Assembly (NCBI GenBank): GCA_900770645.1
Contig: CAAGKY010000102.1
Coordinates: 1,053 to 65,052 of the forward strand
DNA length: 64,000 bases
Direction: 5' to 3'
Origin: Bacilli bacterium
Lineage (GTDB): Bacteria; Bacillota_I; Bacilli_A; ML615J-28; CAG-313
Shown in pieces: positions 1,477 through 56,087 of the stretch. Every line of letters begins with the position of its first letter. Within the stretch, counting starts at the first letter, position 1. The notes below the pieces were generated by a model. It was not told the origin of the DNA, searched no databases, and saw only the letters and a list, made by a program, of their open reading frames with translations. The position numbers and the translations under genes are program-made.

Positions 1477-1548
1477 TTTTAATTTAGTATTAAAATTTAC
1501 TTCAAAACGTTGTATAATATATCATATTAGTTTTATTTGGAGGTAATT

Positions 1549-1776: not shown

Positions 1777-1804
1777 TTAAAATTTATAATAAGAAGGTGA
1801 ATGT

Positions 1805-2182: not shown

Positions 2183-2191
2183 AGTAAACTG

Positions 2192-2220
2192 AGGTTGTAT
2201 TAATTTACAACCTTTTTATT
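2192..2220 (+). terminator. rho-independent terminator
   Basis: Stem AGGTTGT/ACAACCT followed by TTTTTATT. Confidence 0.5.
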
Positions 2221-2232
2221 GTATAATATTAT
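2219..2232 (+). promoter_or_regulatory. extended -10 promoter (TTGTATAATATTAT family)
   Basis: One of about 19 near-identical copies of TTGTATAATATTAT in the window. It sits upstream of the methyltransferase gene. Confidence 0.5.
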
Positions 2233-2254
2233 ATACGAACTAAAGAGGTAAAAT

Positions 2255-2833: not shown

Positions 2834-2852
2834 AAATTTAGGAGGTTTATTT

Positions 2853-3900: not shown

Positions 3901-3911
3901 GAGTGAATTGA

Positions 3912-4157
3912 GTGATAGATTTTGTTGCAAATATAGAATATGTAAATAGAAAACAAGAAATAATTGAAAAAACAATTTCTGTACTAAAAGATTTAGAAGA
4001 TTATAAACTAATTAGTGCGCCAGAAAATGTAGCTGAGATTAAAAAAGCTATTACTTCTTTAGATAATATTAAGATTAGTTTGAATAAATTAGAAGCTACT
4101 TTAACAGCACTATTTTATGAAGAAGCTGAGTTTATTTCATCTTGTTACTCAGAATAG
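3912..4157 (+). CDS. hypothetical protein
   Basis: GTG start after GGAGTGAA. Confidence 0.4.
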   Translation: MIDFVANIEYVNRKQEIIEKTISVLKDLEDYKLISAPENVAEIKKAITSLDNIKISLNKLEATLTALFYEEAEFISSCYSE

Positions 4158-4212
4158 TTTTGAATACTCGTTTAGTCTATAATTTACTGACTAGTACTGA
4201 GAACTAATTTAA

Positions 4213-4246
4213 ATAGCATCATATGAATTCGATGCTATTTTTTTAT
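4213..4246 (+). terminator. rho-independent terminator
   Basis: Stem ATAGCATC/GATGCTAT followed by a T-run. Confidence 0.55.
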
Positions 4247-4343
4247 TGTAAATAGTTAAAAATGAGATCTTTCTATAAATAAATTGGCTAAATTAAATGA
4301 TATTGTTGATAAGACATATAAAAATTCTTTAAGGAGGTTCTAA

Positions 4344-4679
4344 ATGAATAGACTAGAAGAACTATTACTAAAAATAGTCAATAAAGAGCCTATTGGAAAA
4401 TGAGGTTGTGAAAATAGATTAGAGCAATACTTGTTTTGCATTATTGCAAAAGGTACTCCTGAAGCGACTGAAGAGTATGAAAAAATAAGATCATTAGATG
4501 GAAAAGTAGAAATAAACGGATTAGAAGCTTATTTAGATCTTATTTACAATATGACTCCAAATGGAACTAGTGAAATTATTGGCGAAATTATCGCTGCTAG
4601 ACTTGAACAGGTTGACCCAGAACCTACTATAGAACCAGTTGAAGTTATTAGTGGTCGATTAGAAGAAATAAAAGAATAG
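4344..4679 (+). CDS. hypothetical protein; first gene with an in-frame TGA (read as Trp)
   Basis: AAGGAGG RBS before ATG at 4344. TGA at 4401-4403 is in frame. The track shows only the 4431.. fragment. Confidence 0.5.
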
Positions 4680-4914: not shown

Positions 4915-4929
4915 TAAGGAGACGTAATA

Positions 4930-13469: not shown

Positions 13470-13545
13470 CTATAGGATTAAAAAATTTGCTAAATTATAC
13501 GAACAGCTTGTTTAAAAGCGTATTTTATAAAATAAGGAGTAACTT

Positions 13546-16500
13546 ATGCTAAAAATGATTGTACAACATCGCAGAGGTACGACTGCTGAATGAAAATTAT
13601 CTACAGTAATTCCACTAGAAGGTGAACTTTTAATCGAAGAAACAGTTTCTGATGGAATTAAACTTAAAATTGGTGATGGTAAATCAGGATTCTTAGGCTT
13701 ACCTTATATCACAGATTTACTATCTGATAAAATTACTGCCGCTGAAAAAGAATTGAAAAATGTACAAAGCACTGTTACTGATAATGAAGTTATTAGAAAA
13801 TTAAGAAAAGATTTATCTGACCTTGACACCGAAATTAATCTCTTAAATAGAGAACTAGTAAAAGTTCAAAAAAACGTTGGTGACAAGACTATTAACCCAG
13901 AAACAAACGAAATAACTTATTCTGGACTTCATGCACAATTACAGACAATTAGAAACAGTGTTAATATGTTATCAAATAGAATTAGTGGTTTTACATCTCT
14001 TGAAGAAGGTAGTGTGACAGGAGATGCTGAATTACTAGATATTAGACATGGATTTAACGGAATCGACTATTCGTCTGCTGGAGACGCTGTTAGAGCTATT
14101 GGAGACGAATTACAAGCTTTTAAAGATGCTCTTCCTAGTTTTATTCCTGATAATGCTGTTGATGGATTATCTTATGAGAATAATAAGTTATATCTAACTT
14201 CTCAAGGTATTCAAGTAGGTGACGCAGTAACAATTACAGGAGGTGGCGGCGGTGGCAGCACATCTAGTACAATTATCACTTTAAAGAATAATGAGGGAAC
14301 AACTTCTAATATGTCTGTTTCAAAAGGAACTAAAGTAGAAATTAGTTTTAATTTTAGTTCTATTGAAGAAGGCGTTCCTACAGGAGACGGCGTATATAAT
14401 TTAGAAGTAAACAGTAACCCAGTTGAAACAAATGTTCAACTTTCACAAGGTAATAAGACAATCGATTTAACTAAATATTTAAAAGCTGGAATGAATAGAG
14501 TAAAACTTACTTGTTTCGATTATACTGGTTCTTATAAAAGCTTAGCTTATACGATTAATTTAATAGAGTTATCTATTGATTCATCTTTTGGCCCAAATAT
14601 AAATGATATTACTATATTTGAAGCTGACAATGCGGATGAAAATTTTGTTAGCGTAAATTATAATTATACTACTTATGGACAAGTTACAAAAATTGCTCAT
14701 TTCATATTAGATGATCAAGAAATTACTAATGCAGAAGGAAAACCTCTAATTCAATCACTAGGGGCTGGTGAAAAATCTTCTTCTATTAAGTTTAAGATTT
14801 ACGGACATGGTTGCCATAAATTTCAAGTTTATCTTACAGCCACAGTGAATAATAAAACTATTGAGAGTAATAAATTAACTTATAATATTTTATGTAATTT
14901 ACCAGATCCTGAAGCTACTAGACATCCAGCGATGATCGATTCAGTTTTCGAGATTACTAAAGCGACTCAAGGAGATTTGTTAGAAATACCATACAGAGTA
15001 TATGACCCAAATACTGGTCAAGTAACTGTAAATCTATTAGTTGGATCTGGAACAAAAGATAATTATGTAATAGATGAAAAATTATCTAAAGAAGAATTTG
15101 TCGGTAGAACAAAGCAAAAATGACCGATAAAAAATTATCCTATTGGAAATACTGTATTTATTATTAAATGTGCTTATCAAGTATATAACGAAGAAGGTAT
15201 ATTAACAACATATTATGCAGAAAAAATTCATGAAGTATTTGTAGAAGCACTAGATATTCCAGTAGAAGCTGAAACAGCTAATTTACAACTTTGATTAAGT
15301 GCAAACGGAAGATCTAATGCTGAGCTTAATCCTGCAGTATGAGAATATACTCAAACTGTTGAAACTGCTAATGGAATAGAAGAATTAGATACTATTAGAA
15401 CAACTTTTTCTAACTTTAACTGAGTTAATAACGGATGACTTTCTGACGTTAATGGTGATACTTGTTTAAGATTAAATGGTGCCGCTAAGGCCGTAATTGA
15501 TATTAAACCATTTGAAAAGAACTTTGTTAATACAGGTAAAACTTTTGAATTTGATTTTGTAATTAGAGACGTAAATAATCGTGATAGTACTGTAATTAAC
15601 TGTTTTAGTGGAAATAGAGGCTTTAAAGCTACTGCTGACACTTTTACATTCAGAAGTGAATCTGTTCAAATGTCTTGTAACTATAAAGACGTAACATATT
15701 TAACAAAATTAAATGATAAAACTCAAAAAGAAGAGACTATAGAGCAACTTGAACGAACAAGAATTTCTATTACTATTGCTCCATCTAGTTTAATCGCAGA
15801 TAATGCACCAGATTTGAACACTTATTTTATCTCGATGTATATTAATGGTATTTTATCTAATTGTCAAAAATATGGTGGAATAGATGAAGGATTTACTCAA
15901 AGTAATCCAGTAAAAATTTCTTTAGGTTCAGAAGACTGTGGATTAGATTTATATAGTATACGTATATATGATAGTGCACTTTCTCATAAAGGAATTGTTG
16001 ATAATTATATTGCGGATAGTGCTAATGGTCCAGATAAAATAGATTTATATAGAGAAAATAATATTTATTACGCTGATTCTGAGTTATCAGATCAAATTTC
16101 ATATGAAAGTTTAAAAGGAAAAATTCCAATTGTCACTTTTACTGGTAGAATGCCAACATATAAAGGTGATAAAAAGACAAATTCTGTGCTAATGAAGTTC
16201 GAACATCCAGAACATCCAGAGCTAAATTTTGAAGAAGTATTAAAAGAAATAGACGTACAAGGTACTTCTTCTCAATTCTATGTTCGTAAAAACTGAAAAA
16301 CAAAACATTACGACAAGCATGCTCATATGAAAGGTGAGATTCCAACTAAGGTTTTCTGTTTAAAAGTTGACTACGCTGAAGCCACTGGTACTCATAATAC
16401 TCAAGCTGCAAATTTTGTAGAAACATTATATAATCGTTCTGAAGCTCTTTTACCACCACAAGAAAAAGATTCTAGAGTTCGTTCTACGATTACTGGTTTT

Positions 16501-19500
16501 CCATGCGTTATTTTTGAAAAAGAGACTGCTTCTTCTCGACCAGTTTTCTCAGCAAAAGCAAACTTTAACTTTGACAAAGGTTCTGAAGAGGCATTTGGTT
16601 TTACAGAAGATTATGATGTAGAATCTTGAGAATTTTGTAATAACACTTCAGGTGCATGTAATTTCTTAGAAAAAATTAATACCGAAGCTTGAGCAGCTGT
16701 TTATAGATTATCAGGTGCTACTGAGAATACGTCTATTACGATTACGGCTAATTCTCCTGAAGAGGCTGAAATTATTGCTCGTGAATTATTAGCTACGAAG
16801 TCTTCTGAAGATGCTCAATGAGTTAATGCTAAATATATTGGTGTACATCCTTATTGATTAACTGACTTTGAAGCTAGATATGCTCAAAATACTATGAAGT
16901 ATAGCGATGGTTCTACATTTAAATTTGATAAAGATGAAATGTTCTCTATTGATAGATTTAAAGAGATGCATGATTGAGTTTGTGATACCGCAACAGTTAT
17001 GTACGCTAAGCCAGAAGCTAAGGATGGCTACTGATGAGTAGGTAATAAAAATACTGGATTTGAAATTCTTACAGACGATGATGGAAATATAATTCAACCA
17101 GAGATTATTGAAGACGAAGCAACAAAATCTAAGAATTGATATATTAATGGAGTAGATTCAAAAATATCTAGTCTTGATATCGTTCCAATAAATGTATTCC
17201 CTTTACCTAAACCTGTGACTATTGGAACAGTTGAATATAGAGAAGATAACGTAGATTATCGTAGAGCAAAGTTCGTCAAAGAATTTACAAACTATTTTGA
17301 TGAACACTATGCAGCGGTTTATTATGTATATACTTTTGTCGCATTAATGACCGACCAAAGAGCCAAAAATATGTTCTTAACTTATTGAGGTGAGACTGGT
17401 AAATGATATCCATATTTCTATGATAATGATACTTCTTTTGGTATCAATAATGAAGGTGCTCTTGTTTTCGATTATTATCATGAAGATACTGATACATTAG
17501 ATGGTGCACTAGTTTACAATGGTCAAAATAGTGCATTATGAACAAACTTTAGAGAAAATTTCGAAGACCTAGTTTCTTCAACATATCAAAACTTAAGAAA
17601 TAATGGTAAATTAGATTACGAAAAATTTGTAGAGCAATTTATTAATTGTGGAGCTAAGAAGTGGTCTGCATCTATTTATAATGCTGACGCAGAATATAAA
17701 TATGTGTCTATGGCACGACCTGACAATTTAGGAAACTTTGATGCTGCAAACTTATATCAAGTTAAAGGTTCTGCTGAACAACATTTTAAATACTTTGTTG
17801 CAAATAGATTAAAGTATTGTGATAGTAAGTGAAACTGTGGTGACTACCCGGACGACAAGATTTTCTTACGTATTTATACTCCATCTACAGGTGATAATGC
17901 TATTTTAAATGAGCCAAAACAGATTGACGGATATTGATGGATTGATGGTGTAAACACTGGATACTTAGTTAATACAGATAGCAGTGATCAAATCATAATT
18001 CCAGAAATAAGTGAAAATAATACTTGGATTCTAAATAAAGGTTTAGAAGATCAAGAAATTGATACAGAGATAGAGGTTAGATACGGAAAAGTTGAATTAG
18101 CAGTGGCACCAAATGCTAATATTAGTTTAAAAACATTTTCAGATATGTATGCAGGTGTTAAATACAAAGCAAATGGTACGTTATTAAGAAAGAGAGTTAA
18201 GAAAAATGTAATGTTAACTGGAAAAGACGCATTTATTCCTCCAAAATCAGCTAACGGTTTATCTGAAGTATTTAATGATACTGAAACTGCGATTTATGGT
18301 GCGAGTGAAATTTCTTCTCTTGGAGACCTATCTGGACTTTATTGTGGTGTTATTGATGTTTCAAAAGCTACGAAGTTAACTGAACTAAAAATTGGTAACA
18401 GTACTACTGGTTATTTTAATGATAACTTTAGAGATATTCAATTAGGTAATAATAGATTATTGAAAAAAATTGATTTAACAAATTGTCGAGGTTTAGGAAT
18501 CGCTGGAAAAAGCCCTCAAAAATCTTTAAATGTATCAGGTTGTCCAAACATCGAAGAAATTTTGGTTAAGGGTACAAGTTTAGAATCAATTAACTTGCCA
18601 GCTTCTGGATATATTACAAAACTTGAATTACCAAATACTTTGACAGGTCTAAATATTAGAAATCAAATGTACTTAACAAATAGTGGTATTTTATTGGACG
18701 ATTATTCTAAACTTAAAAAATTACGTATTGAAAACTGTAAAAATATAGATACTTTAGCTCTTCTTAGAAATTGTATAGATAGTTCGAATAACTTTACAGT
18801 TGAACGAATCAAATTAACTGGAATAGATTGAACATTTGATGATCCTGAATTCTTATTATCACTTATGAGTATTAAAGGTATGGACGCAAATGGTTTAGAT
18901 ACTGATCATGTATATCTTGGCGGACATGTTCACATAAAAGAACTTACTGGAGCACAATATACTCGAATATTTGATTACTATAATACTTATCACACTAATG
19001 AATCACTTTTAAAAATTACTTTTGATCGTATGACATCTTATGTATCGTTCTATACTAACGTAAAAGATGGAAATGGAAACTATATTCCATTTACATTCTC
19101 AGATGGAACACCTTGAATCCAAGAAGTTACAAATACACTAAACGATAAAGGAGAAATTGTTCGTAATACGACTGATCCAACAAAAGTTCCTTATTTATAT
19201 GATGGAAAAGAGGAAAAATTACAAACTCCAACTCAAGAAAGCACTATTGAGTTTTCTTATGCATTTAATGGTTGAACACGTACGCCTAATGCTCCTGCTC
19301 AAGTAGATGCATTATTAGACGTTACAGGTGATCGATCTGTTTATAACGCATATGTAAAAACTATTAATAAGTATCCAGTTCAATTTTATACTTATGGTTG
19401 AGATGGTCCAGAGTTATTAAATACGGTTATGACTAATTATGGTGAAATTGCAGAGTATTCTGGTGATACAGCGTTACTGATTAAAGGTAATACTAGTGTA

Positions 19501-20871
19501 CCAGAACGATATGAATTTGTAGGATGATCGCCTGAACCATTAGTTAAGCCTACTACTTTTGATGAAGTTATTAAGACTTACGCTCAGTTTAACTTAGTCG
19601 ATCGAGATGAAGACGGAGATATTTCTGATGAGTGACATATTCCATTACTTGGTGATATTAATTACTCTATAGATGACACTTCAAAGAAGATGAATATTAC
19701 TGCTTACTATAATACTAGTGAACCATTAGTTTATATACCAGAATCTTATTTTATTGGAGACGAGGAATATTCTGTTTACGAGGTTGGTGGTTTTAACGCT
19801 ACAAATGTAGAACATGTTAAATTAGCTGAAGGAATAGAATCTATTTATGGACACCCAATAAATGGAGCATTTGCTGGTGCACAAAATTTAGTTGAAGTAG
19901 ATTTACCAGAAAGTTTGACTACGATTAAAGACAAAGCTTTTTCACAAACTCCTAGATTGACAGAATTATACATTCCAAAAAATGTACAAAGGATCGAAAG
20001 ATCAATTTTAGGTGAAGGTGGACATGTGAAAAATATTACCGTAGATAAAGATAATAAGATCTACGAAGCTATAGATGGATGTTTATTGGGACCTTATTCT
20101 TTATATTCTGCAAATGGAAAAGAGAATGAAAAGATAGTTCTTGCATGTAACACTAATGATGCTTTACCAGACTCTGTACAAGATAAAAATATTGTATGTA
20201 TAGGTACAGATGCATGTAGACAAAATCATTGTACCGAAATAACTATACCCAATACAGTTAAAATATTAGAAAACTTTGCTTTCTTTAGTTGTAAGAATCT
20301 TAAAAAAGTTAACTTATCTAGTAATGTTGAAGAATTTGGATCTGGAGCATTTGGATATTGTGAAAACTTAGAGTCTATCACTTTACCAGAGACTTTAGTT
20401 CAATTATCAAACCATGCGCTAGTTGGATCAAACCTTGAAGAAATTATTGTGCCAGCAAATGTAAAAAATATCTCAATCGAAGCCTTTAGTAAATGTAAAA
20501 ATCTTAAAAAGATTACTTTTATGGGTAAACCTGATAAGATTTCTTGGTCTATACTCGCAGATTCTGGTCATGAGGATGGCTTAGAGATCTATGTAGCTTG
20601 AAATAAAGAAGATAATCGCACGATTGGTGCTGGAGATACTGCCAAACTAGGTGACCCATATACTGCTATACCTTGTGCTTGAGGTGCAGGAGCGCCTATG
20701 CCACAAACACTTGATACAGAATCTGATTATGCCTATAACCGAGAAATTAAGCGTACTCGTAATGTAAAAATTATTTATAAAAATGGTGAAGAGCAATTAT
20801 TATTAGCAGGCGAAAAAGCTTGACCTGATTGATCAGCTATTTCAACATTTATAGATCGAGGAGACAATTAG
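13546..20871 (+). CDS. giant multidomain virion protein (about 2441 aa): fibre N-terminal motif, CotH kinase-like domain, LRR and BspA-type LRR
   Basis: I checked frame continuity across every junction; there is no in-frame TAA or TAG from 13546 to the TAG at 20869-20871. More than 20 in-frame TGAs. CotH-like DQRAKNMFLTYWGETGKW(tga)YPYFYDNDTSFG. LRR region 18100-18830. BspA-like LRR IPxxVxxIxxxAFxxCxxLxxI at 19690-20600. Confidence 0.7.
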
Positions 20872-34135: not shown

Positions 34136-35794
34136 ATGTCAAAAATGTTAGACTCAGTTAAAGAAATTCGTTCAGATGTTAAATCAAAACAAGTTACAAA
34201 TTTTATGGGCGGAAATTCTTATGAATTAAACGCTATTGATACTTTAAAGATGATTACAGCTTCATCTATTTTTGGAGAACCTTCATATTACCGTAATGGT
34301 GAATTTGATGATGCAAAAATTACTGATGCATATTATGATGTTAATTCTTTATTTAAAGAATTTAGTGTATTAGATGATTCTAAATTCTCTGGTAAAAAAA
34401 CTTCTGAAATTATGGAACAAGTTATTGATGAAGCATTAACAGAAGATTTTGGGGCTGTTTTAGATTGGGCAGTTGAGCTACGTAAAAACTATTTAATGAG
34501 ATTAAACCCTCAAGTTATTATGGTACGTGCAGCTATGCATCCAAATAGAGTTAAATTTAATGAAGAAAATCCAGGTAAATTTAAAGAAACAGAAAAATTA
34601 GTTATGTCTCGTGCTGATGAACCTGCTTCTCAATTAACTTATTATTTATATAAAAATAAGAATAAAAATAATTTACCAAATATTTTAAAACGTTCTTGGG
34701 CTGAAAAATTAGGTAGTTTAAATGCATATCAAGTTTCAAAATATAAAAATACAGGTTTAGGAATGATCGACGTAGTTCGTATTTCACATGCAAAATCTAA
34801 AGTTTTAGATGAACTTATGAGAACAGGAACTGTTGTTGTAGCTGAAGAAGATAAAACTTGGGAAAATCTTAAATCAGCTGGAAAAACATGGAAAGAAATT
34901 CTTGAAACTATTAAATTAGGCCATATGGCTCTTTTAAGAAATCTTCGTAATATTTTTACAGAAATTGATGATAGAGCTATTTGTATTAAAGTTCTTGAAG
35001 ATTTAAAAGCTGGTGTTTTATCTGGTAAACAATTTCCATTTAGATACTATTTAGCATATAAAGCAGTTGAAGAGTCAAGTATGAACTTTAAACCACTAGT
35101 TTTAGATGCATTAGAAGAATGTATTGATATTTCATTAGATAACATGCCAAAACTTTCTGGTAAAACTATGACATTATCTGATAACTCTGGTTCTGCTTGG
35201 GGAACAATTCCAACAGAATATGGATCAGTTAAAGTTGCAGAGATTGATAACTTATCTGCTGTTATTACAGCAATGCTTTCTGATGAAGGTTATGTTGGTG
35301 TATTTGGAGATAAATTAGAAATTATTCCAATTAAAAAACGTGATGGTGTTTTATCTCAGATGAAACTTGTTACTGAAAAAGGTAGTAGAGTAGGTAGAGG
35401 AACAGAAAATGGTATTTGGTTATTCTGGGACAAAGCTATTAGAGAAAAAGAACATTGGGATAATGTATTTATTTATTCAGATATGCAAGCAGGTCATGGT
35501 GGATTATACGGTATTGATGCACACTGGTATAACGAATATAGATGTCGTGGTAGTTATATTGATGTTATGAAGCTAGTTTCTAAATATCGTTCAACAGTAT
35601 CTGGCATAGTAAATGTATTCTCAGTTCAAACTGCTGGATATACAAATGTAGTAATTCCAGAATATGCATATAGATCTAATGTAATGTATGGCTGGACAGG
35701 TAAAGAAGTTGTATTCGCTGACACAATGATTAATTTTTGGAATGAAAAAGATTTAGAGAGATTAATCAAAATTAGAAAAAATAATCAAAATTAA
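34136..35794 (+). CDS. Ro60/TROVE-like protein with C-terminal vWA domain (Rsr-like)
   Basis: 552 aa. Large alpha N-terminal region followed by a vWA MIDAS motif LSDNSGSAWG (DxSxS) at about residue 345. Flanked on both sides by ORF-free structured RNA and a tRNA island. No TGA. Confidence 0.45.
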   Translation: MSKMLDSVKEIRSDVKSKQVTNFMGGNSYELNAIDTLKMITASSIFGEPSYYRNGEFDDAKITDAYYDVNSLFKEFSVLDDSKFSGKKTSEIMEQVIDEALTEDFGAVLDWAVELRKNYLMRLNPQVIMVRAAMHPNRVKFNEENPGKFKETEKLVMSRADEPASQLTYYLYKNKNKNNLPNILKRSWAEKLGSLNAYQVSKYKNTGLGMIDVVRISHAKSKVLDELMRTGTVVVAEEDKTWENLKSAGKTWKEILETIKLGHMALLRNLRNIFTEIDDRAICIKVLEDLKAGVLSGKQFPFRYYLAYKAVEESSMNFKPLVLDALEECIDISLDNMPKLSGKTMTLSDNSGSAWGTIPTEYGSVKVAEIDNLSAVITAMLSDEGYVGVFGDKLEIIPIKKRDGVLSQMKLVTEKGSRVGRGTENGIWLFWDKAIREKEHWDNVFIYSDMQAGHGGLYGIDAHWYNEYRCRGSYIDVMKLVSKYRSTVSGIVNVFSVQTAGYTNVVIPEYAYRSNVMYGWTGKEVVFADTMINFWNEKDLERLIKIRKNNQN

Positions 35795-36633: not shown

Positions 36634-37386
36634 ATGTATAAATGTGAGTGTGGAAAAGAATTTGAAAAACCTAATAGCTTTAATGCACATAAATCTAACT
36701 GTAGAGAACATTACATAGCTAAATATGGTTCTGATAAAAAGTGGCTTGAAATTAAAGAACGACGTAGTAAAAATAGTTTAAATACAAGTAAGGTTAATTT
36801 CAAACAGAAACAAGTTGAAGAATTGAACATCTGACTTTCTGAACAACATACTTGTGAAAGATGTCATAAAATAATGACTAAATGATACGGTTCTGGTAGA
36901 TTTTGTTCTCAAAGTTGTGCTAATAGCAAAGATAATTCAGGTATGAAATATACTTGTAGCTGTCAGTATTGTGAGAAACAATTTGTAAAAGATACAGCTA
37001 AGGCTCGTCATGAAAAATATTGTGAGTTAAATACAAACAGACCACCTAAAGCGGGACAACATAAATATAGATTAGATAAAAGTGTAGATTTTTATAGAAT
37101 TGGTAGTATGCATCAGATATTAGTAAATACTATCGAAGATGTTGAAAATTATTTATCTGCACATCTTACTTGTGAAATTTGTGGCAAAACGGTTGAAGAA
37201 ACGGTCAAATGAAAGTCTAAACATGCACCTAAGCGTCTATGTGTAGATCATGATCATGCAACAATGCAGTTTAGAGGTGTTTTGTGTTCTGTTTGTAATC
37301 GTCAACTCGGATGATATGAAGCAAACAGAGAAGCTATTAATAAATATTTAGAAAAAGATTTTCCTCTAGAAGATAAATCAAAATAA
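36634..37386 (+). CDS. HNH endonuclease with N-terminal C2H2-like zinc finger (homing-endonuclease-like), several in-frame TGAs
   Basis: One frame through TGAs at 36832, 36883, 37210 and 37312 to TAA at 37384. HNH motif LCVDHDHATMQFRGVLCSVCNRQLGW. GSGRFCSQSCANSK is shared with the 50751 gene. Confidence 0.65.
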
Positions 37387-38170: not shown

Positions 38171-38227
38171 GCCAAAAATAAAAATAATTTAAAATTTATA
38201 AAAATATTAAAAATTATACTGTTTATA

Positions 38228-38245
38228 TTGTATAATATTATGTAA
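38228..38245 (+). promoter_or_regulatory. extended -10 promoter TTGTATAATATTATGTAA
   Basis: Consensus copy upstream of the intron-containing tRNA. Confidence 0.5.
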
Positions 38246-38332
38246 CTAAGTGAGTATTTATATTTTATTAAAAAATGATTCCCTATGATTACTTATGTCA
38301 TTTCTTTCATAAGTGCTCACCTAGTTTTATAT

Positions 38333-38625
38333 AGGGGCTTCGTACAACGGCAGTACATCGGTCTTTTTGAAAAAACAGTGGCCAACCACTTATGGAGCAC
38401 CTAGTTGGAAACATCTAGTGTGAATGCTGGCTAATTCGGCGAAGGTTGGAGAACGCCGAGCTAAGTGGAAAGTAATTTCCTAAATGTGTAGAGACTATAC
38501 ACCAGCTACCTAAACAGAAATGCACGGTAAAGACATAGTCCACTAAGATTAACGTATTCTTATGTCAAGAACTAACTTCTTAGGCAAAACCGCGAATGTG
38601 GGTTCGATTCCTACAGCCCTTACCA
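38333..38625 (+). tRNA. tRNA gene interrupted by a group I intron of about 220 nt; anticodon unresolved (Lys or Leu candidates)
   Basis: 5' exon: acceptor AGGGGCT, D-arm GTAC-AACGGCA-GTAC, anticodon stem TCGGT. 3' exon: T-arm GTGGG-TTCGATT-CCTAC, acceptor AGCCCTT plus ACCA. Interior carries group I P7 elements R-like GTAGAGACTATAC and S-like AAGACATAGTCC. Confidence 0.55.
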
Positions 38626-38738
38626 TTTAAAAAATTCAAGCACGATTAATTTCGTGCTTTTCTTTTATTTTGCACTAAAATTAGCTTTATTTTTATCGTA
38701 TAATATTATATATAATGAATATAATGGAGGTTATTAAT

Positions 38739-43133: not shown

Positions 43134-44123
43134 ATGAATAAAAAAAGAATGGTAAGCGGGATCAAGCCTACGGGAAAAATTTCAATCGGAAATTATTTAG
43201 GCGCAATTAAACAATTTATTAACTATCAAGATGAATATGATTTATATGTATTTATTGCTGATTTACATGCTCTAACTTTACCAATTGATCCGGAAGAATT
43301 AAAACAAAATATTGAAGATTTAGTTGCTATTTATTTAGCTTGTGGATTAGACCCAGAAAAATGTAAAATTTTTAAACAATCTCAAATAATTGGTCATACT
43401 GATTTAAGTTGGATTTTAACATGTAATTCTAATGTAGGTGATTTTACTAAAATGCCTCAATATAAAAATTATATTGAAAAAAATAGTACTAATGGTGTTC
43501 CAGCTGGAATGTTAATGTATCCAGCATTAATGGCAGCAGATATTTTATTATATGATGCTGATTACGTTCCTGTTGGAATTGATCAAATGCCTCATGTTGA
43601 TTTATGTAGAGATATGGCAGAAAAGTTTAATAAACGCTTTCCAGATACTTTTAAATTGCCTTCTGGTGTTTTAAATAGAACAACTAGTAAAATCATGAGT
43701 TTATCAAATCCAACGCGAAAAATGAGTAAATCTGAGTCTGATAAAGGAACAATTTATTTATTAGATGACATTGAAGTTTCTAAGAAAAAAATTATGAAAG
43801 CTTTAACAGATTCTGAAAATAAATTTTATTATGATCCTTTCTTAAAACCAGGCCTATCTAACTTAATTAATATTTATTCAGCATTATCTGGACAAGCTGT
43901 TGAAGAAGTTGTTGAACAATACAGAGATTCTGAAAATTATGGCGTTTTTAAAAGAGCTTTATGTGAACTGTTAGAAAAAGAATTACTTCCAATTCAAGAA
44001 AGAGTGAAAGAAATTAAAGAAAGTAAATCTTATGTTCAAGTATTACAAGATGGTAATTGGGCAGCTCACGATCTAGCTTTTTCAAAGATGAGAGAAGTTT
44101 ATAAAAAATTAGGTTTAAAGTAA
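43134..44123 (+). CDS. trpS: tryptophanyl-tRNA synthetase
   Basis: Near full-length collinear similarity to bacterial TrpRS. SGIKPTGKISIGNYLGA (HIGH-region equivalent), ADLHALT, MYPALMAADILLY, KMSKS. 329 aa. No TGA; all Trp codons are TGG. Confidence 0.95.
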   Translation: MNKKRMVSGIKPTGKISIGNYLGAIKQFINYQDEYDLYVFIADLHALTLPIDPEELKQNIEDLVAIYLACGLDPEKCKIFKQSQIIGHTDLSWILTCNSNVGDFTKMPQYKNYIEKNSTNGVPAGMLMYPALMAADILLYDADYVPVGIDQMPHVDLCRDMAEKFNKRFPDTFKLPSGVLNRTTSKIMSLSNPTRKMSKSESDKGTIYLLDDIEVSKKKIMKALTDSENKFYYDPFLKPGLSNLINIYSALSGQAVEEVVEQYRDSENYGVFKRALCELLEKELLPIQERVKEIKESKSYVQVLQDGNWAAHDLAFSKMREVYKKLGLK

Positions 44124-44510
44124 ATGAAACATTATTTTTATTTATTAGTTGCAGGATCTAGAGATTTTAATAACTATGATTTACTAGAAGAGTTCATTGA
44201 TTATTCTTTAAGATATAGAACTGAACCCATTTGTATCGTTTCAGGCGGTGCAAGAGGTGCTGATACATTTGCTAAGCAATATGCCATTGATAGAGGCTTT
44301 AGCTATATTGAATTTCCAGCAGATTGAAATAAATATGGAAAATCTGCAGGCTATATTAGAAACGAAGAAATGCATAAATTTATAGCTCAGTTTGAAAATA
44401 GAGGTGCAATATATTTCTGGGACGGAAAATCTCGAGGTACAGCTCATAATTTTGATTTAGATTTAAAATATAAGATTAAAAATTTTATTATAAAATATAA
44501 AGAACTTTAA
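44124..44510 (+). CDS. SLOG/DUF2493-like Rossmann protein
   Basis: VSGGARGADTFAKQYA motif. One in-frame TGA at 44325. Ends TAA at 44508. Confidence 0.45.
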
Positions 44511-44555
44511 AAATAAATATTGTATTATATTATATATAACACAGGAGGATTTATT

Positions 44556-45086
44556 ATGTTTAATATTAATTTCAATGCAAAAGATACAACTTGGACTCCA
44601 GCAATGGAAGAACATGCTAGAAAAGTAATTGAAAAAATCTTTACTCGCATTGCAATACCTACAGAAGCAAGTTTTTTTGTTAAAACATCGATTATCGATA
44701 AGAAAACAAAAATGATTAAAGTTGAATTAAGTGGTGCTGGATTTAGAGCTCAAAGTGTAAATAAAGATTTTTATGCAGCAATGACCGCTGTAACTAATAA
44801 ATTTAAATCTTTAATATTAAAACAAAATAAAAAATATGTAACAAAGAAAAAACATATTACTTTTGATGATGATAGTTTCTTAGAAAACGATTCTATCGAT
44901 GTTAATAATTTAATTACTAAAGAAAAAGTATTTATCATTGATGAGTGCTCTTTAGAAAAAGCTATAACAAAATTTGAGCAAACAGACTACTCATTCTATA
45001 TTTTTAAAGAGTTAGATTCAGATGATGAAATGGCTGTATTATATAGACGTGCTGATGATACTCTTGGTATTATTAGATGTCGCTAG
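44556..45086 (+). CDS. hpf: ribosome hibernation promoting factor (HPF/RaiA, long form)
   Basis: AGGAGG RBS. N-terminus MFNINFNAKDTTWTPAMEEHARKVIEKI and FYAAMTAVTNKFKSLILKQNKK are collinear with bacterial HPF/YfiA. Confidence 0.65.
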   Translation: MFNINFNAKDTTWTPAMEEHARKVIEKIFTRIAIPTEASFFVKTSIIDKKTKMIKVELSGAGFRAQSVNKDFYAAMTAVTNKFKSLILKQNKKYVTKKKHITFDDDSFLENDSIDVNNLITKEKVFIIDECSLEKAITKFEQTDYSFYIFKELDSDDEMAVLYRRADDTLGIIRCR

Positions 45087-45499: not shown

Positions 45500-45690
45500 T
45501 AATTTTCCTACTTAAGGCTGCTGTACAGAGTCTTAGACAAAAGAAAATGCAAGGTGAAACCTATTTCTAGCAGGTTCTAATTGGGGAGTAGCCACCTATA
45601 TGATCAATTAGTTTTCTGGTGAGAACAATCCGCTGCAGCTAGGACATCTAGGCAGGTTCAATTCCTATATTGATCACTTAATTTATATTC
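45500..45690 (+). ncRNA. candidate ncRNA with a degenerate tRNA-like 3' module
   Basis: ORF-free. Perfect 7-bp acceptor-like pairing GATCAAT...ATTGATC flanks a TTCAATT T-loop-like motif. No anticodon arm. GCTGCAGC palindrome. Confidence 0.3.
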
Positions 45691-47077: not shown

Positions 47078-49250
47078 TCGGATCGTACTCTAGAAATCTT
47101 CGGAACTAGGGTTAGCAATTATGCTTAAAATAATCGCGCCACAGGTTGTGACAGGGGTGGTTGTACGAAGAAGCAGGTGTACGTAAAATAACCAAGGATT
47201 ATTAAGATGAGTCAGTGCGGACCACCTGAGGGTTGAAGAAGGCATGGAATAACCATTGGTCTTAATAATGAATTACAAAAACCAGTAATACCACAATGGC
47301 CGTAAACCGTATACGACTCTGGTTGAAGTAGGAGGCACATCGCTGAAATGCGAAGTTAACAAGTAAAAACGGTTTGAGTCAGGGTGATATCTGACAAGTA
47401 CCAGGTGGTAATGGTCATATTGTATAGGTTTTTAATAAGTTTATACTATACAAAATTATGGAGTATTATAAGTTTTTATAGCACCCCTATAAAAAGAGGC
47501 CCTTATAGTACAGAATTATAAAATAACTTAATAGTCGTTGAAAGTGGTATCCATCGGCTGGGATTGAATAGAGTTATAAGATACCCTCTATTCCGGATAC
47601 GTTTAAGGGTAAGACGATAACGAGGCCTATTATTTGGCTAATAATAGGGAAAACCCTTTTGGATCATACTTTAGTTTCTTCGGAGCTAAGGTTTTAAAAA
47701 ATTATTGGGCTGGGCGAAAGCTCTTGGTCCACCAACGACGGGGAATTGCCTCGTCTGGTGTTCAGCGAAAGCTGATAAGTTTATTAAGGGCGAAAGGTGT
47801 TGCGACACCAAGTAGCGATATACACGAGGTTGCGGAGATGCATGTGCGACTCATACAACACCGGCAGGGGGCTAGTTTAAGAGTACAATACCGCTCAGTG
47901 TATAGCTAGGCAACGTAAGTTGTAACAGATAATTCGAGAGTGGTAGAATTTTTGGGTTATCTTAAACGTATTTCTGCGGCAGCAATTGAGCTGTTCTAAG
48001 GAATATAAGAGTATTCAATATGTGTCATGGAGAATACTGCATTTAGGTGTTAGGAACGGACTGTAAGTAAGAAGACAGTATCAGAGATTTAACGACTGAT
48101 TTAGACTTCTTCTCCCTGACTAATTAAATGGAGTGTGATGAACAGCCTAAAATTGTTAAACGGTTCGGGTATACATCGAGAGTATACATTGCTAATCTGT
48201 GGATTAGTTATCTTATTAGTTTCCTGTTCATTTGTGAATTGAGGTAAAGCAATAAGCAAAAGCTAATAATTTTGATCACTTACCGTTGGTGAGATGTGAC
48301 CTCCACTTGGTTGATAACTAGAGTGGCATTAAACTGCCGAATGACTATTCCTTGGGCCAAGGATACGGAAACCTCAGAAGCGGAAATCGCTAACCGTGAT
48401 TGTCATTGCACGTCGGAAACCCTTTTCCGTAAAATTGGGGACTTAATAGTAACTAGGTTAAAAAACTACTATTGATGTCGCGTATCGTCAGCCGATCTAG
48501 TAGGCTTGTGTTAGTACTAACAGGGACGCTCTCTGTAATCCTACAAGCGATAGTAGGTAATTTTATTATAGTGGCTTTTGTATTAGACATTAGTTATTTA
48601 TAATAAAATTTATAACAAGTGTGGTTTCTACTATAAGTGAGGCCAACTAGCAGTAAGTCTAATTTTATATTTAGGATGTCGACAGATATAGATTAGCAAC
48701 TAGTATATATTTCTATTATTATATAATTCCTGGCAGCGCTAGGTTTAGCAAAGTTGAACGTAAAAAGATGGGTGTCTCAGTTCTAAGAAGTAAGTTATAT
48801 AAAATAGAAATTTGTAGACTTCTCCATCAGGCCTCTGCCTTTTGGTATGCACACTTGATGGCGATCTGCCAAATAGATCCATACACGCCGCCATTGTTGT
48901 TTTTGGGTTAATGTACTATTGAGCATGCAGGTCTTTGGACTTCAGTAGAGTTAACTCTGTGGTAATAAGTCTGTTTGTCAGACTCGGCGTACCATGTATG
49001 GCCATTTAATGCTCTTCAGGCAGTCTGTAAGAGTAGTATAGTAGTAAATTTTCTTCCCGCACCTCGGCAAGACAGCGAGACAGTTTGTGCATGTGCCCCA
49101 GGGAAGCAGAGCTTGATATCTCTATCGTCTCAAAAGTTATCCGTAACATTGAGCGCAGGTAAGCTAATTTAGTCTTGACCTGGACCGTGATAAAAACTTC
49201 CTTTACGTGAATGAGGACCTGACTGAGGATATGTTAGAAGTCAGAGCGCT
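47078..49250 (+). ncRNA. about 2.1-kb ORF-free, GC-elevated segment between tRNA genes: candidate giant structured ncRNA(s) or intron
   Basis: No ORF over 91 aa in any frame even allowing TGA. The two track ORFs (47634..47909, 48975..49172) lack an RBS and end at TAG. GC clearly above the genome background. Multiple GNRA-type hairpins (ACGGAAACCT, AGCGGAAATCGCT, CGGAAACCC). Internal promoter-like TATATAAT at about 48700 followed by TCCTGGCAGCGCTAGG. Confidence 0.45.
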
Positions 49251-50750: not shown

Positions 50751-51731
50751 ATGAAAGTAATTAAGACATATATTTGCGAATGTAACAGAGAATTTAGTAA
50801 CCCACAAAGCTTTAACGGCCATAAGAGTCACTGCAAAATTCATATGATAGCTACAAATAAATATGATAAGTTTTTACAAGATGATAACATACGTCATGAA
50901 AAACAGAGAGCTACTATACAATATAAAAAAATAAATCAATTAAAAATAGCTGAACAAAATAGTGAAAACAATACAAAAATCTGAAAAGCTAAAAAATATA
51001 CTTGCGAAAAGTGTGGAAAAGTGATGACTGAAAAATTTGGCTCAGGTAGATTTTGTTCAAGAGCTTGTGCTAACAGTCGAAATCATTCAGAAGAAACAAA
51101 GAATAAAATTAAATTATCAAATACTGGAAAAACATTTATTTCTTCAAAAGTTGTTGATAGAGAAATTGCTATTGAACTATATAATCAATCTCCAAAATAT
51201 TGTATTGATTGCAATACTTCATTACCCTTTGAGCGTCGTAAAAAAGACAGATGTTTAGACTGTGCAGATATTCATAAAAGACAGTTGTTATCAATAAACT
51301 CAAAAAAATGAGTTGAAATCTATGGAGGTAACATAAACAAATTTGGCACAAGAGGCCGAGCTAAATACGGTTGATATAAAGGTTTTCATTGTGATAGCTC
51401 TTTTGAATTAGCTTATGTTGTGTATTGTCTAGAACATGGTATAAATATTCAGAGAAATAAACAAGGTTTTGAATATGAATATAATGATAAAAAGCATTTA
51501 TACTATCCAGATTTTATTGTAGATGATACATATATCGAAATAAAAAATTATTGAAGCTCTGAAGTGCAAGCTAAGATAAATTATTTTCCTAAGAATTTAA
51601 ACTATAAAATTTTATATAAAAAAGATCTGACAAGTATATTATCTTTTGTTATTGAGAAGTATGGGTGTGACTACACGGCAGCTCTCTATGATAGAACCCT
51701 ACCAAGTTATTTAGATAAAAATAAGAAGTAA
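50751..51731 (+). CDS. homing-endonuclease-like protein: C2H2-like zinc finger, NUMOD3 motif, PD-(D/E)xK-like C-terminal domain; several in-frame TGAs
   Basis: One frame through TGAs at 50982, 51309, 51369 and 51552 to TAA at 51729. CECNREF...HKSHC. GSGRFCSRACANSRNHSEETKNKIKLSNTGK (NUMOD3). YYPDFIVDDTYIEIK. Confidence 0.65.
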
Positions 51732-53981: not shown

Positions 53982-54329
53982 ATGGTTGGTTGAATTGAAA
54001 CTACAAATGGAATAATCACATTAATAACTAGTTTACTAGGATTAGCTGGTACAGCTGTTGGAGCATATTTTGCAATAAAAAACTGGATTTCAGTATTAAA
54101 AAATAAAAACAAGCAAGAAATTTGGGTAATGATCATGCAATTAGCTGATGCAGCAATGAAAGAAGCTGAAGCATCAATGAAAGATGGAGAAACAAAAAAA
54201 CAAATGGTTGTCGATTCAGTAAAAGCTGGATGCAAAGCTGCCGGAGTTGATTTAGATTTGTTTATAGATCAATTGAGTGATTATATAGACGAGACTATTT
54301 CATTTGTAAACAGTATGCAAAATAAATAA
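53982..54329 (+). CDS. putative holin-like small membrane protein
   Basis: AGGAG RBS. TGA at codon 4. One TM segment (IITLITSLLGLAGTAVGAYFAI) followed by a charged amphipathic tail. Confidence 0.4.
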
Positions 54330-54382: not shown

Positions 54383-54412
54383 ATATTAATGATATTTTGT
54401 TGGAGGACTAAG

Positions 54413-55228
54413 ATGAATCGAGAAGAACTAATTATGTCGAAAGTGACTGATCACTATAATACTGCAGTTTCACTAGGTTTTGAAGTAGTTGGTGTATTTT
54501 TGCAAGGATCTCAAAACTACGAATTAGACGAATATTCTGATGAGTATACAAGCGATGTTGATACAAAATGTTTTATTCTACCAACATTAGATGATATTGC
54601 TTCTGGAAGAGCTCCATATTCATCTACATATATTCGAGAAAATAGTGAGCATATTGACATTAAAGATATCAGGGTATTTTTTAATATGCTAGAAAAACAA
54701 AATACAGCTTATATTGAAACTTTATTTACTAATTTTTATATTATTAATCCAAAATATGAGGATTTAGTAAATGAATTATTAAGTAGAAATGAAAAAATTG
54801 CACGTATCAACGAAAATCAAGCTTTAAGATGTTTAGCTGGTATGAGTATGGAAAAATATAAAGCTTTAGAGCATCCATATCCAACAACTTTGGATAAAAT
54901 TGAAAAATATGGATATGATCCAAAGCAATTACATCATATTTTAAGAATTAATGATCTAATGAAAAAATATATTGCAGGAGTGTCTTATAAAGAATGTTTA
55001 TTACCAAATCATGCAAGTTATTTAATGCAAGTTAAAAAAGGATTGCACCCTTTATTTGAAGCTAGACGTGTAGCAGAAGAAACTGATTTAGCAAATAAAA
55101 AACTTAAAGAAGAAAATTCAACGCCTACAGACGTAGTTAACGCTGGAACATTATGTTTTCTTAATGAGCTAGAACGTAAATTTATTAAACGTTTCTTAAA
55201 AGAGGAGGTATTAAAAGATGAAGAATAA
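54413..55228 (+). CDS. nucleotidyltransferase-fold protein (Pol-beta superfamily)
   Basis: GGAGGACTAAG RBS before ATG at 54413. GSQNYELDEYSD...SDVD resembles the hG[GS]...D.D motif. Confidence 0.45.
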   Translation: MNREELIMSKVTDHYNTAVSLGFEVVGVFLQGSQNYELDEYSDEYTSDVDTKCFILPTLDDIASGRAPYSSTYIRENSEHIDIKDIRVFFNMLEKQNTAYIETLFTNFYIINPKYEDLVNELLSRNEKIARINENQALRCLAGMSMEKYKALEHPYPTTLDKIEKYGYDPKQLHHILRINDLMKKYIAGVSYKECLLPNHASYLMQVKKGLHPLFEARRVAEETDLANKKLKEENSTPTDVVNAGTLCFLNELERKFIKRFLKEEVLKDEE

Positions 55229-56087
55229 AAAATATTTTGTCGTAAGTGATATTCATTCTTTTTTTACCGCGTTAATTACAAATTTAACAAAAGCAGGCTT
55301 TGATAAAAATAATAAAGATCATATCTTAATTGTTTGTGGAGATATTTTTGATAGAGGTTTTGAAACATTAGAAGTATATAAATTTTTAAAAAGCTTACCT
55401 AAATCTCGTTGTATTCTAATTAAAGGTAATCATGAAGATTTATATTTTGATTTATTAAAGAAGGATTGTCCAAATTCATATGATTACAGTAATGGTACGG
55501 TTAGAACATTTGCAGCTATTGCAAAAGTTCACGAAAATAGCGTTAGTCCTTATTATCTAGCTATGCTTGGAGAAGACTTTAAAGAAAATTGGATAAAAGT
55601 AAGAGAAAAAGTTAAAAAATCTGCTATTACTAAATGGTTAATGTCTAATAGATGGATTAATTATTATGAATTAAAAAATAATATCTTTGTCCATAGTTTT
55701 ATTCCAGTTAAATTAAAAGATGCTTTTGCAGAAATTACTTCTCATAAGTTACCAGTAGAGTATTTTGAATATAATTCTGAATGGCGTAAAGCAGATAATG
55801 AATCTTGGCTAGAAGCTATGTGGGGATGTCCATATAAAAAATTTAGAGCTGGGTTAGCTAAAGGTGAAGTTGAAGATGGAAAACGAATTGTATGTGGTCA
55901 CTGGCATACAAGTGATTTTCATGAAAGTTTTGGAACAAGTGGAAAAACTGATGATTATGATATTTATTTTAGTGAAAATTTAGTTGCTATAGACGCTTGT
56001 ACTGCATTAACCGAAAAAGTTAATGTATTAGTAATATCAAATGAAGGTTATTTTGATCAATATGGAAACAAATTAGGAGATTTATAG
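55218..56087 (+). CDS. calcineurin-like metallophosphoesterase (lambda-type Ser/Thr protein phosphatase family)
   Basis: VVSDIHS...CGDIFDRG...KGNHED motifs (DxH, GDxxDRG, GNHE). Confidence 0.75.
   Translation: MKNKKYFVVSDIHSFFTALITNLTKAGFDKNNKDHILIVCGDIFDRGFETLEVYKFLKSLPKSRCILIKGNHEDLYFDLLKKDCPNSYDYSNGTVRTFAAIAKVHENSVSPYYLAMLGEDFKENWIKVREKVKKSAITKWLMSNRWINYYELKNNIFVHSFIPVKLKDAFAEITSHKLPVEYFEYNSEWRKADNESWLEAMWGCPYKKFRAGLAKGEVEDGKRIVCGHWHTSDFHESFGTSGKTDDYDIYFSENLVAIDACTALTEKVNVLVISNEGYFDQYGNKLGDL

Follow-up and report, generated by a model that had tools for sequence, protein, structure and literature searches.

A probable two-piece module for UGA decoding, a tryptophanyl-tRNA synthetase and an intron-split suppressor tRNA, in a recoded phage genome

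The 64,000-nucleotide stretch of DNA analysed here (positions 1,053 to 65,052 of contig CAAGKY010000102.1, called the window throughout) encodes a tryptophanyl-tRNA synthetase (TrpRS) in a genome whose late genes appear to need TGA to be decoded as tryptophan. This raises the question of which tRNA the enzyme serves and whether the two together change the genetic code. A first-pass annotation of the window had proposed that the TrpRS charges a phage suppressor tRNA-Trp(UCA). This proposal agrees with all the computational tests that we ran and is supported by them, with charging itself being predicted from the sequences of enzyme and tRNA. We consider it probable that the window belongs to a large gut or rumen phage in which a two-piece decoding module, consisting of a suppressor tRNA and the TrpRS, switches UGA to tryptophan.

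TGA codons and the synthetase gene

When TGA was read as sense in a scan of the window, the longest open reading frame (ORF) grew from 700 to 2442 amino acids and late ORFs became fused; no comparable jump in ORF length was seen in the window when TAG or TAA was recoded. The ORF at 13543-20871 contained 30 TGA codons versus 4 TGG codons, and the ORF at 4918-7455 contained 7 TGA codons and no TGG. In genetic code 4, with TGA counted as tryptophan, 68 non-overlapping ORFs made up 85% of the window, and the tryptophan frequency was 1.26%. Twelve related contig stretches (L001-L012) were retrieved, giving 13 loci together with the window. Window TGA codons were matched in orthologs on related contigs by TGA (16 cases) or TGG (7 cases) and by no other codon, and TGA codons of the relatives lay opposite TGG 25 times, TGA 16 times and another codon once in the window. 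Because the alignment paired window TGA only with TGA or TGG, we conclude that TGA is tryptophan in this phage genome; the earlier statement that the late genes need this decoding was thus borne out by both the ORF fusions and the aligned codons.

The TGA codons were concentrated in two blocks, at 3.9-29.9 kb and 50.7-54.3 kb, which together carried about 70 TGA and 38 TGG codons when summed over the code-4 ORF set, and all window genes outside these blocks contained 2 TGA and about 99 TGG codons. The TGA-rich blocks encode structural-type proteins and a holin-like gene (Table 1), which its profile match marks as an instance of recoding in a lysis gene, situated downstream of the decoding module. 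The TrpRS gene sits in a TGA-free block. In the SLOG/YAcAr-family gene that follows it, the in-frame TGA at 44325, in the context FPAD-TGA, is replaced by TGG (FPADW) in L004, L005 and L002, and the L002 copy of this gene has a TGA at a position where the window has TGG.

The protein encoded at 43134-44123 matched Pfam tRNA-synt_1b (PF00579, E = 1e-71) and the NCBIfam trpS profile TIGR00233, the latter with 329.4 bits against a cutoff of 176.75 and over profile positions 2-328 of 328. In the translation both class I motifs, GNYLG (HIGH-type) and KMSKS, could be seen, and the nearest solved structures were those of Geobacillus stearothermophilus TrpRS, to which residues 4-328 could be aligned. 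By these matches the gene product is a full-length bacterial-type TrpRS, and the first-pass annotation was right to call it a TrpRS. The annotation was also correct that the gene is free of TGA: we counted 0 TGA and 2 TGG codons, and the TrpRS gene lacked TGA in 13 of 13 loci. Since it holds no TGA, the gene could be translated ahead of recoding. Metagenomes yielded more than 100 relatives of the enzyme, at 74-85% identity. A protein scan of IMG/VR gave no match for it, and GenBank phage records contained no close TrpRS, the best match (44.8% identity) being an unverified 'Enterococcus phage' record that is presumably bacterial contamination.

A putative suppressor tRNA split by a predicted group I intron

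Default ARAGORN predicted 12 tRNAs in the window, none with a UCA anticodon, and Rfam at its gathering score likewise gave no UCA tRNA there. With introns allowed, ARAGORN reported a split tRNA at 38333-38625, about 4.5 kb upstream of the TrpRS gene, which had a 219-nucleotide intron in its anticodon loop and was labelled Cys(GCA). The first-pass annotation had found no UCA anticodon among roughly nine canonical tRNAs of the window and had asked for an ARAGORN search; its negative statement holds for the default scans and fails once introns are allowed, and its suggestion that the suppressor might be one of the non-canonical tRNA-like elements present here fits the split gene well. Ordinary tRNA finders miss this gene because the intron interrupts the anticodon.

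When the two exons (38333-38365 and 38585-38625) were joined, the anticodon loop read CUUCAAA with the anticodon UCA, the cloverleaf was the minimum-free-energy fold, and ARAGORN under code 4 identified the molecule as tRNA-Trp(tca). The joined exons were colinear with 8 distinct intron-less tRNA(UCA) genes of the relatives, all of which read GGTCTTCAAAACC. The closest of these comparisons was made with L008, where the 3' half of the intron-less gene was 90% identical to the window's 3' exon over 41 nucleotides and the acceptor stem and T arm were identical to those of the window gene. The suppressor has an A1-U72 pair, as bacterial tRNA-Trp has, and its anticodon stem is similar to that of E. 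coli tRNA-Trp; we take its body to be tRNA-Trp-like. Bacterial tRNA-Cys has U73, and the suppressor gene has A73. We therefore read 38333-38625 as a putative gene for an opal-suppressor tRNA-Trp(UCA), a reading that hinges on predicted splicing between anticodon positions 34 and 35.

The position of the splice junction was examined closely, as two candidates have U at position -1 and G at omega: ggtct/...tag/gcaaa, which would give GCA, and ggtctt/...tagg/caaa, which would give UCA. In the register that supports the GCA junction, taken from the Rfam alignment, C32 faces C in P1. In the other register C32-U33-U34 pairs with G-A-G at 38395-38397, with a U34-G wobble, and all three pairs are invariant. 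In P9 the closing helix reads CUAAGA/UCUUAG for the window and CUGAAA/UUUCAG for L001; one pair is changed on both sides, and the helix stops just before an unpaired G, the omega-G at 38584. The intron-less orthologs, the tRNA-Trp-like body, the CUU/GAG pairing of P1 and the end of P9 before omega-G all argue for the 34/35 junction and the UCA anticodon. ARAGORN assigned Cys(GCA) because it placed the intron boundaries 1 nucleotide off. The same shift was seen on classical tRNA-Leu(UAA) introns, several of which it labelled Phe(gaa) or Ser(tga), and boundary shifts of this 1-nucleotide kind are documented (PMC13011429). The Cys(GCA) label was rejected on the UCA orthologs, the P1 register, the P9 end and this shared error. 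Classical tRNA-Leu(UAA) introns have the junction CUU/a...g/AAAA (10.1101/2020.01.27.920355), at a position given as 34/35 (PMC13011429).

The intervening sequence matched the Rfam family Intron_gpI at 38355-38560 with 45.5 bits (E = 1.6e-10 in a search of 451 nucleotides). Four homologous introns in tRNA-Leu(UAA) genes scored higher and reached the gathering score of 50, at 50.2-62 bits. In the structure drawn from the window sequence, the U at -1 pairs with G in P1, the last base is the omega-G, and helices P3-P9 are formed together with the P7 pseudoknot. The same intron was found in L001, L002 and L064, and three full copies of the split tRNA (window, L001 and L064) served for covariation analysis. 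Across the 67 modelled pairs of the P1-P9 model and the tRNA stems, 96.5% of cells were paired versus 33-47% in slid controls, and 12 pairs were compensatory, being changed on both sides; such changes were located in the acceptor, D, P2 and P9 helices. An extension of P1 through the CACC 3' of the guide GAG, with a bulged C, was dropped, as L001, L064 and the tRNA-Leu introns place CACC in P2. On this model, 38366..38584 would be a group I intron of the IC3-like type found in tRNA anticodon loops, and self-splicing is predicted.

We scanned metagenomes with a relaxed pattern of the intron core and obtained 85 loci (L013-L097), where a first, stricter pattern had given 0; a 45-nucleotide core pattern had no match in IMG/VR. 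The automatic choice of the 5' splice site fell on an internal GRCTT in about half of the 85 loci, and only manually checked copies were used. The host genes that could be assigned among these loci were mostly tRNA-Leu(UAA), with the classical CUU/...G/AAAA junction, and these introns often lay inside tRNA arrays on contigs of 50-270 kb that are probably phage. The loops of the two host tRNAs differ by one base, CUU/CAAA in the suppressor versus CUU/AAAA in tRNA-Leu(UAA), and it is therefore plausible that the intron jumped from tRNA-Leu to the suppressor tRNA.

The split gene appears to form a transcription unit of its own (Table 1). Upstream lies a promoter-like 22-mer, TTGTATAATATTATGTAACTAA, whose exact copies lie at 38228 and 45481 and which recurs with 2-3 mismatches at 32314 and 33811 (all on the + strand); 0 copies were expected in shuffles. 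The copy at 38228 overlaps the best sigma-70-like site, at 38207-38236, and the leader that carries it is also conserved upstream of the split tRNA of L064. Small RNA genes follow three of these four copies: a tRNA-Lys, the suppressor pre-tRNA and an odd tRNA-like element.

At the low threshold -ps85, ARAGORN returned about 40 extra 'tRNAs', many of them inside ORFs, which were set aside as noise. A tRNA(UCA) ortholog at L003:3146-3219 has the T-loop GGCAGCA in place of the usual TTCRANY and is missed by ARAGORN even with introns allowed, a second route by which suppressors escape detection.

The enzyme-tRNA pair, its host and the alternatives

We then asked how the two genes are placed relative to each other. 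A locus was informative when it contained enough sequence upstream of TrpRS, as did the window and 11 related contigs, and in all 12 of these a tRNA(UCA) lay on the same strand 95-4508 nucleotides upstream of the TrpRS gene. The gap is largest in the window (4508 nucleotides) and amounts to 95-3740 nucleotides in the intron-less relatives, with 95 nucleotides in L010-L012. The tRNA lacks an intron in L004-L008 and L010-L012 and is split by one in L001 and L002; that of L003 has the aberrant T-loop. Suppressor tRNA and TrpRS thus constitute a module that is TGA-free, lies on one strand and can be read in the standard code.

The two partners also share a departure from bacterial tryptophan identity. 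Every copy of the suppressor tRNA(UCA) has A73, not the bacterial G73; the phage tRNA-Trp(CCA) of L010 keeps G73. For bacterial TrpRS, G73 and the anticodon are major identity elements (PMC2965240). In the co-crystal of E. coli TrpRS and its tRNA, Glu155 hydrogen-bonds G73, Gln152 stacks on G73 and C34 is read by backbone atoms of the enzyme (Y270, G271); Gln152 and Glu155 are described as strictly conserved in bacterial TrpRS, and the equivalent Glu-to-Asp change lowers the activity of the B. subtilis enzyme (PMC12135181). We aligned 121 TrpRS sequences of the phage clade with the enzymes of E. coli, Enterococcus, Staphylococcus and Listeria, using E. coli numbering. Position 152 was Ser in 104, Pro in 14 and Ala in 3 of the 121 sequences and Gln in none; position 155 was Asp in 110/121; and position 151 was Met, Leu or Ile in place of Lys. 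Met152, Pro153 and Asp156 of the window enzyme occupy the positions of E. coli Lys151, Gln152 and Glu155. The tryptophan-pocket residues M132 and D135 were kept in 121/121 clade sequences. The anticodon-binding residues, which the first-pass annotation had wished to see inspected, were likewise preserved, with the contacts T225, D226, S227, Y270, G271 and K274 invariant across the 121 clade sequences. This joint change of the discriminator pocket in the enzyme and of the discriminator base in the tRNA points to a dedicated TrpRS/tRNA(UCA) pair. Because A73 and U34 depart from bacterial identity, the residues that read G73 are lost and the contacts to C35 and A36 are kept, we infer that the phage TrpRS would charge the spliced suppressor.

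The only clue to the host came from contig L005. Beginning with position 4644, this contig matches the phage contig L004 at 99.4% identity. Its upstream part encodes LytB, EF-P and an aminotransferase and shows 86% nucleotide identity to the goat-colon metagenome-assembled genome (MAG) 'Bacilli bacterium RGIG2093', with 100% identity in EF-P. Bacterial sequence gives way to phage sequence precisely at the 3' end of the bacterium's tRNA-Asp (L005:1-4722; L102 = JAFQRV010000033.1), so that the junction looks like a prophage attL; a chimeric assembly is the other reading. The Bacilli MAG lineage joined to the phage in this way comes from goat, sheep and human gut, and its EF-P is 55-58% identical to EF-Ps of Acholeplasmataceae and Erysipelotrichaceae MAGs. 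In six MAGs of this lineage ORF totals barely changed when TGA was read as sense, tryptophan was encoded by TGG, and some ORFs ended in TGA. The absence of in-frame TGA from this MAG lineage, together with the two classes of codon usage within the phage, argues for a host with the standard code and not one with native code 4. The first-pass annotation had held that the TrpRS would have no link to recoding if the phage lacked a tRNA-Trp(UCA) and the host natively read UGA as tryptophan; we found a split tRNA(UCA) in the window, and the candidate host lineage appears to use the standard code.

From these observations we propose the following mechanism, in which splicing, charging and timing are all predictions. 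The host would be a low-GC member of the Firmicutes (class Bacilli) that uses the standard code. The structural and lysis genes of the phage would be written in code 4, and its other genes would be readable in the standard code as well. The suppressor pre-tRNA, with its own promoter-like element and terminator, would be made from the standard-code-compatible part of the genome and would splice itself through the CUU/GAG pairing of P1 and the omega-G to yield the anticodon loop CUUCAAA. The TGA-free TrpRS would be made before recoding exists and would charge the spliced suppressor with tryptophan. As both pieces accumulate, UGA would come to be read as tryptophan and the recoded late and lysis genes could be expressed. 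A more far-reaching version is tentative and, in our estimation, rather doubtful: since the UCA anticodon is absent until the intron leaves, the suppressor would be gated by its ribozyme, with the rate of splicing (or its dependence on guanosine, Mg or a phage factor) setting the onset of UGA decoding; A73 and the altered pocket would make a natural orthogonal pair; and non-canonical suppressors would explain part of the approximately 65% of code-4 genomes that seem to have no suppressor.

Several explanations other than a dedicated decoding module were weighed. The TrpRS might be a general auxiliary translation gene, serving as a backup or replacement for the host TrpRS or in counter-defence, with the tRNA(UCA) being charged by the host enzyme. 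Large phages often carry synthetases and translation genes, and here a ribosome hibernation factor (HPF) is always beside TrpRS with S21 and many tRNAs nearby; Borges et al. (10.1101/2021.08.26.457843) argue that most recoded phages, having no synthetase, can rely on host TrpRS for the charging of UGA suppressors; the HF2 phage TrpRS, whose tRNA has A73, also charged E. coli tRNA-Trp(CCA) (PMC12636597); and tRNA and TrpRS of the window lie in different transcription units. We nevertheless judge this explanation unlikely, as the tRNA(UCA) stands upstream of TrpRS in all 12 informative loci and at only 95 nucleotides in L010-L012, the A73 of the suppressor is disfavoured by bacterial TrpRS, and the loss of the G73-reading Gln and Glu is hard to square with charging a host tRNA-Trp that has G73. 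If instead the host natively used code 4, as the Mycoplasmatales do, there would be no switch, and TrpRS and tRNA(UCA) would only add capacity. The low GC content (about 30%) and the possible relation of the host lineage to Acholeplasmataceae and Erysipelotrichaceae, suggested by EF-P, would suit such a host, yet a phage adapted to code 4 would be expected to use TGA throughout and not to show about 99 TGG versus 2 TGA outside the late blocks. A phage of such a host would also need no suppressor with a discriminator unlike the host's, and the MAG lineage keeps its ORF totals almost unchanged with TGA as sense, uses TGG for tryptophan and ends a few ORFs in TGA; a native code 4 is therefore very unlikely.

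The identity of the split gene itself could also be questioned. It might be a tRNA-Cys(GCA) or a decaying pseudogene, with the real suppressor outside the window or with host tRNA-Trp misreading UGA. ARAGORN's default junction, ggtct/...cttag/gcaaa, does give GCA, U at -1 and the omega G are available at both candidate junctions, and the Rfam score of the intron is below the gathering score. Against this, the body matches the intron-less tRNA(UCA) orthologs, down to the identical acceptor and T arms of L008, and has the A1-U72 and A73 of phage suppressors; the GCA register sets C32 opposite C where the CUU/GAG register forms three invariant pairs; the P9 helix ends before the second G; and ARAGORN makes the same 1-nucleotide error on classical tRNA-Leu(UAA) introns, turning them into Phe(gaa). 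Paired changes that preserve the acceptor, D, P2 and P9 helices in the different copies are a further argument against decay. We regard a tRNA-Cys or pseudogene as hardly credible.

The reading of the two genes as a dedicated UGA-decoding module nonetheless has points that weigh against it. The intron score of 45.5 bits is under the Rfam gathering score of 50, and the split tRNA(UCA) is known in only 3 full copies and 1 partial copy, so that covariation was drawn from few sequences. In the window the two genes are 4.5 kb apart in separate transcription units. RF1, a component of the comparable module of the Jade phages (see below), was not found in the part of the genome covered, namely the window (all but 3 kb of a 67-kb contig, whose relatives exceed 130 kb) and the gene tables of the relatives: the only ORF of the window that bears the universal GGQ motif is a structural protein, and the tables of L001-L012 (10-kb flanks) contained no RF-1 or PCRF Pfam match. 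Glu is kept at position 155 in 11/121 clade enzymes, and as C34 is read by the backbone, the sequence does not reveal whether U34 is accepted. The activity of the HF2 enzyme on E. coli tRNA-Trp raises the prospect that the remodelled pocket may relax specificity for G73 and not switch it. Finally, the host was assigned from a single junction contig, which may be misassembled.

Table 1. Features of the decoding module and its surroundings (window coordinates)
Feature	Coordinates	Strand	Remarks
Promoter-like 22-mer TTGTATAATATTATGTAACTAA with extended -10 element TGTATAAT	38228..38249	+	upstream of suppressor pre-tRNA; putative function
5' exon of putative tRNA-Trp(UCA)	38333..38365	+	acceptor 5' strand, D arm, anticodon stem 5' strand, C32 U33 U34
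Predicted group I intron, 219 nucleotides	38366..38584	+	no ORF; between anticodon positions 34/35; omega-G 38584
3' exon of putative tRNA-Trp(UCA)	38585..38625	+	C35 A36, rest of anticodon arm, T arm, acceptor 3' strand, A73, encoded CCA
Intrinsic-terminator-like hairpin and T run	38638..38669	+	8-bp stem AAGCACGA/TCGTGCTT, then TTCTTTTATT; closes suppressor unit
Tryptophanyl-tRNA synthetase, 329 amino acids	43134..44123	+	single ORF, ATG to TAA; TGA-free; remodelled G73 pocket
SLOG/YAcAr-family gene	44124..44510	+	directly 3' of TrpRS; Pfam PF10686; 1 in-frame TGA (44325-44327) = Trp
Long-form ribosome hibernation factor (S30AE and C-terminal domain)	44520..45086	+	Pfam PF02482, PF16321; conserved TrpRS neighbour
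Holin-like gene	53982..54329	+	1 in-frame TGA; Pfam Phage_holin_6_1, 27.5 bits vs cutoff 24.9

The surroundings of the module were also compared. HPF adjoins TrpRS in L001-L008 and L010-L012 as it does in the window, always within a few hundred bases, and ribosomal protein S21 is encoded near TrpRS in L003 and L007, giving a conserved translation-related neighbourhood. The holin-like gene with its TGA lies 10 kb downstream of TrpRS in the window and the holin of L001 5 kb downstream, neither being adjacent. GIY-YIG and NUMOD3 endonucleases adjoin tRNA(UCA) in L003, L007 and L004. Two Endonuclease VII/HNH-type genes of the window, at 36634-37386 (+) and 50751-51731 (+), lie within and beside tRNA arrays and resemble homing endonucleases; each carries 4 in-frame TGA codons, and their translation would therefore come only after the code switch.

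Further RNA features were seen near the tRNA genes. The tRNA-like element at 45602-45677 (+), preceded by the same promoter-like 22-mer as the suppressor, has a non-canonical anticodon arm, which can be drawn with an 8-nucleotide loop, CUGCAGCU, or with a bulged stem and GCA. Its discriminator base is A73 and CCA is not encoded; the Rfam tRNA model gives it 29.9 bits, and ARAGORN in default mode does not report it. A copy with 92% identity is found at L008:6796-6871, and paralogs at L008:729-793 and L004:6240-6304, with the same acceptor, D and T arms and the loop UGGUAAU, lie about 100 nucleotides upstream of tRNA(UCA). Beside the tRNA arrays, 2.2 kb at 47080-49250 are without credible ORFs, have 35-38% GC in a genome of about 28% and are 87-93% identical in L008, L004, L005 and L006. 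The only Rfam match in this stretch was DUF3800-XI RNA (47706-47752, 47 nucleotides, 53.6 bits), and one large structured RNA or several may be encoded in it. In the regions 34136-35794 and 54389-56087 (both +), a gene for a TROVE/Ro60-like RNA-binding protein (PHROG 850, E = 5.7e-45) lies beside tRNA genes, and further on there are genes for a nucleotidyltransferase and a metallophosphoesterase or RNA-ligase-like protein, which suggests a set for tRNA quality control or repair; no Y-RNA was identified.

Comparison with known systems

The combination of a TrpRS with a suppressor tRNA has been published before, and our core interpretation is not new. The Jade phages have a code-change module of TrpRS, TGA suppressor tRNA and RF1, with a predicted late code switch (10.1101/2021.08.26.457843). 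Compared by their published description, the window clade resembles them in having TrpRS and TGA suppressor in standard code upstream of recoded lysis genes, here at a distance of 10 kb, in its predicted Firmicutes hosts and in the role proposed for the pair, the charging of the suppressor with tryptophan for a late switch, which is also the role put forward by the first-pass annotation. It differs in the following points: RF1 was found neither in the window nor in the relatives' 10-kb flanks; a promoter-like element and a terminator of its own accompany the window's tRNA, which lies 4.5 kb from TrpRS and is interrupted by a predicted group I intron; and HPF and the SLOG protein are the conserved neighbours. 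The searchable literature gave us no report of a group I intron within a suppressor tRNA, nor of a remodelled G73 pocket alongside A73 suppressors.

The classical IC3 intron of cyanobacterial and plastid tRNA-Leu(UAA) shares with the window intron the 34/35 site, the U at -1, the omega-G and the CUU/GAG pairing of P1; metagenomic tRNA-Leu(UAA) introns share the core sequence of the window intron as well. In the window, however, the host gene is a putative phage nonsense-suppressor tRNA-Trp, P5 is shortened and a hairpin is present inside the P1 loop. Theta (HDV-like) ribozymes adjoin phage suppressor tRNAs, mostly UAG suppressors (Kienbeck et al. 2024, PMC10879173), and are the closest precedent for linking a ribozyme with a suppressor. 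They resemble the window system in the physical coupling of a ribozyme to suppressor maturation and in the proposed tie to the timing of the code switch, but they are self-cleaving processors of the 3' trailer, unlike the predicted self-splicing intron within the anticodon. An Rfam search of the window was negative for theta and HDV-like ribozymes, GOLLD and ROOL.

The findings bear on a puzzle of recoded phages. Borges et al. detected a suppressor tRNA in only 35% of code-4 genomes (10.1101/2021.08.26.457843), Yutin et al. met the same puzzle of many recoded genomes without a detectable suppressor, and both suspect non-canonical tRNAs that escape detection. The split suppressor of the window and the aberrant T-loop of L003 provide worked cases. 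The value of the present analysis is accordingly that of a mechanism and a lesson in detection, rather than of a new principle.

With respect to the enzyme, E. coli TrpRS (PMC12135181) and the phage clade have the fold, length and catalytic motifs in common, as well as the residues that contact C35/A36 and C34; the clade differs by Gln152 to Pro/Ser/Ala, Glu155 to Asp and Lys151 to Met, and its partner tRNA has A73 and U34. Seki et al. (2025, PMC12636597) showed in vitro that tryptophan is inserted at UGA by two phage TrpRS:tRNA(UCA) pairs, AP1 and HF2, which were set beside the window pair by their published description. The HF2 tRNA has A73, like every suppressor of the window clade, and AP1 shares Phe at position 40 with the window TrpRS. 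In contrast, the AP1 tRNA has G73, the tRNAs of both pairs came from intron-less predictions, and the AP1 enzyme has L6, T7 and I145 where the window TrpRS has V7, S8 and V. The A73 suppressors and a TrpRS without the G73-reading Gln and Glu offer a specific basis, accessible to mutation, for a natural orthogonal pair that decodes UGA. Such a pair would matter in practice for genetic code expansion, a field in which AP1 and HF2 are the only pairs characterised.

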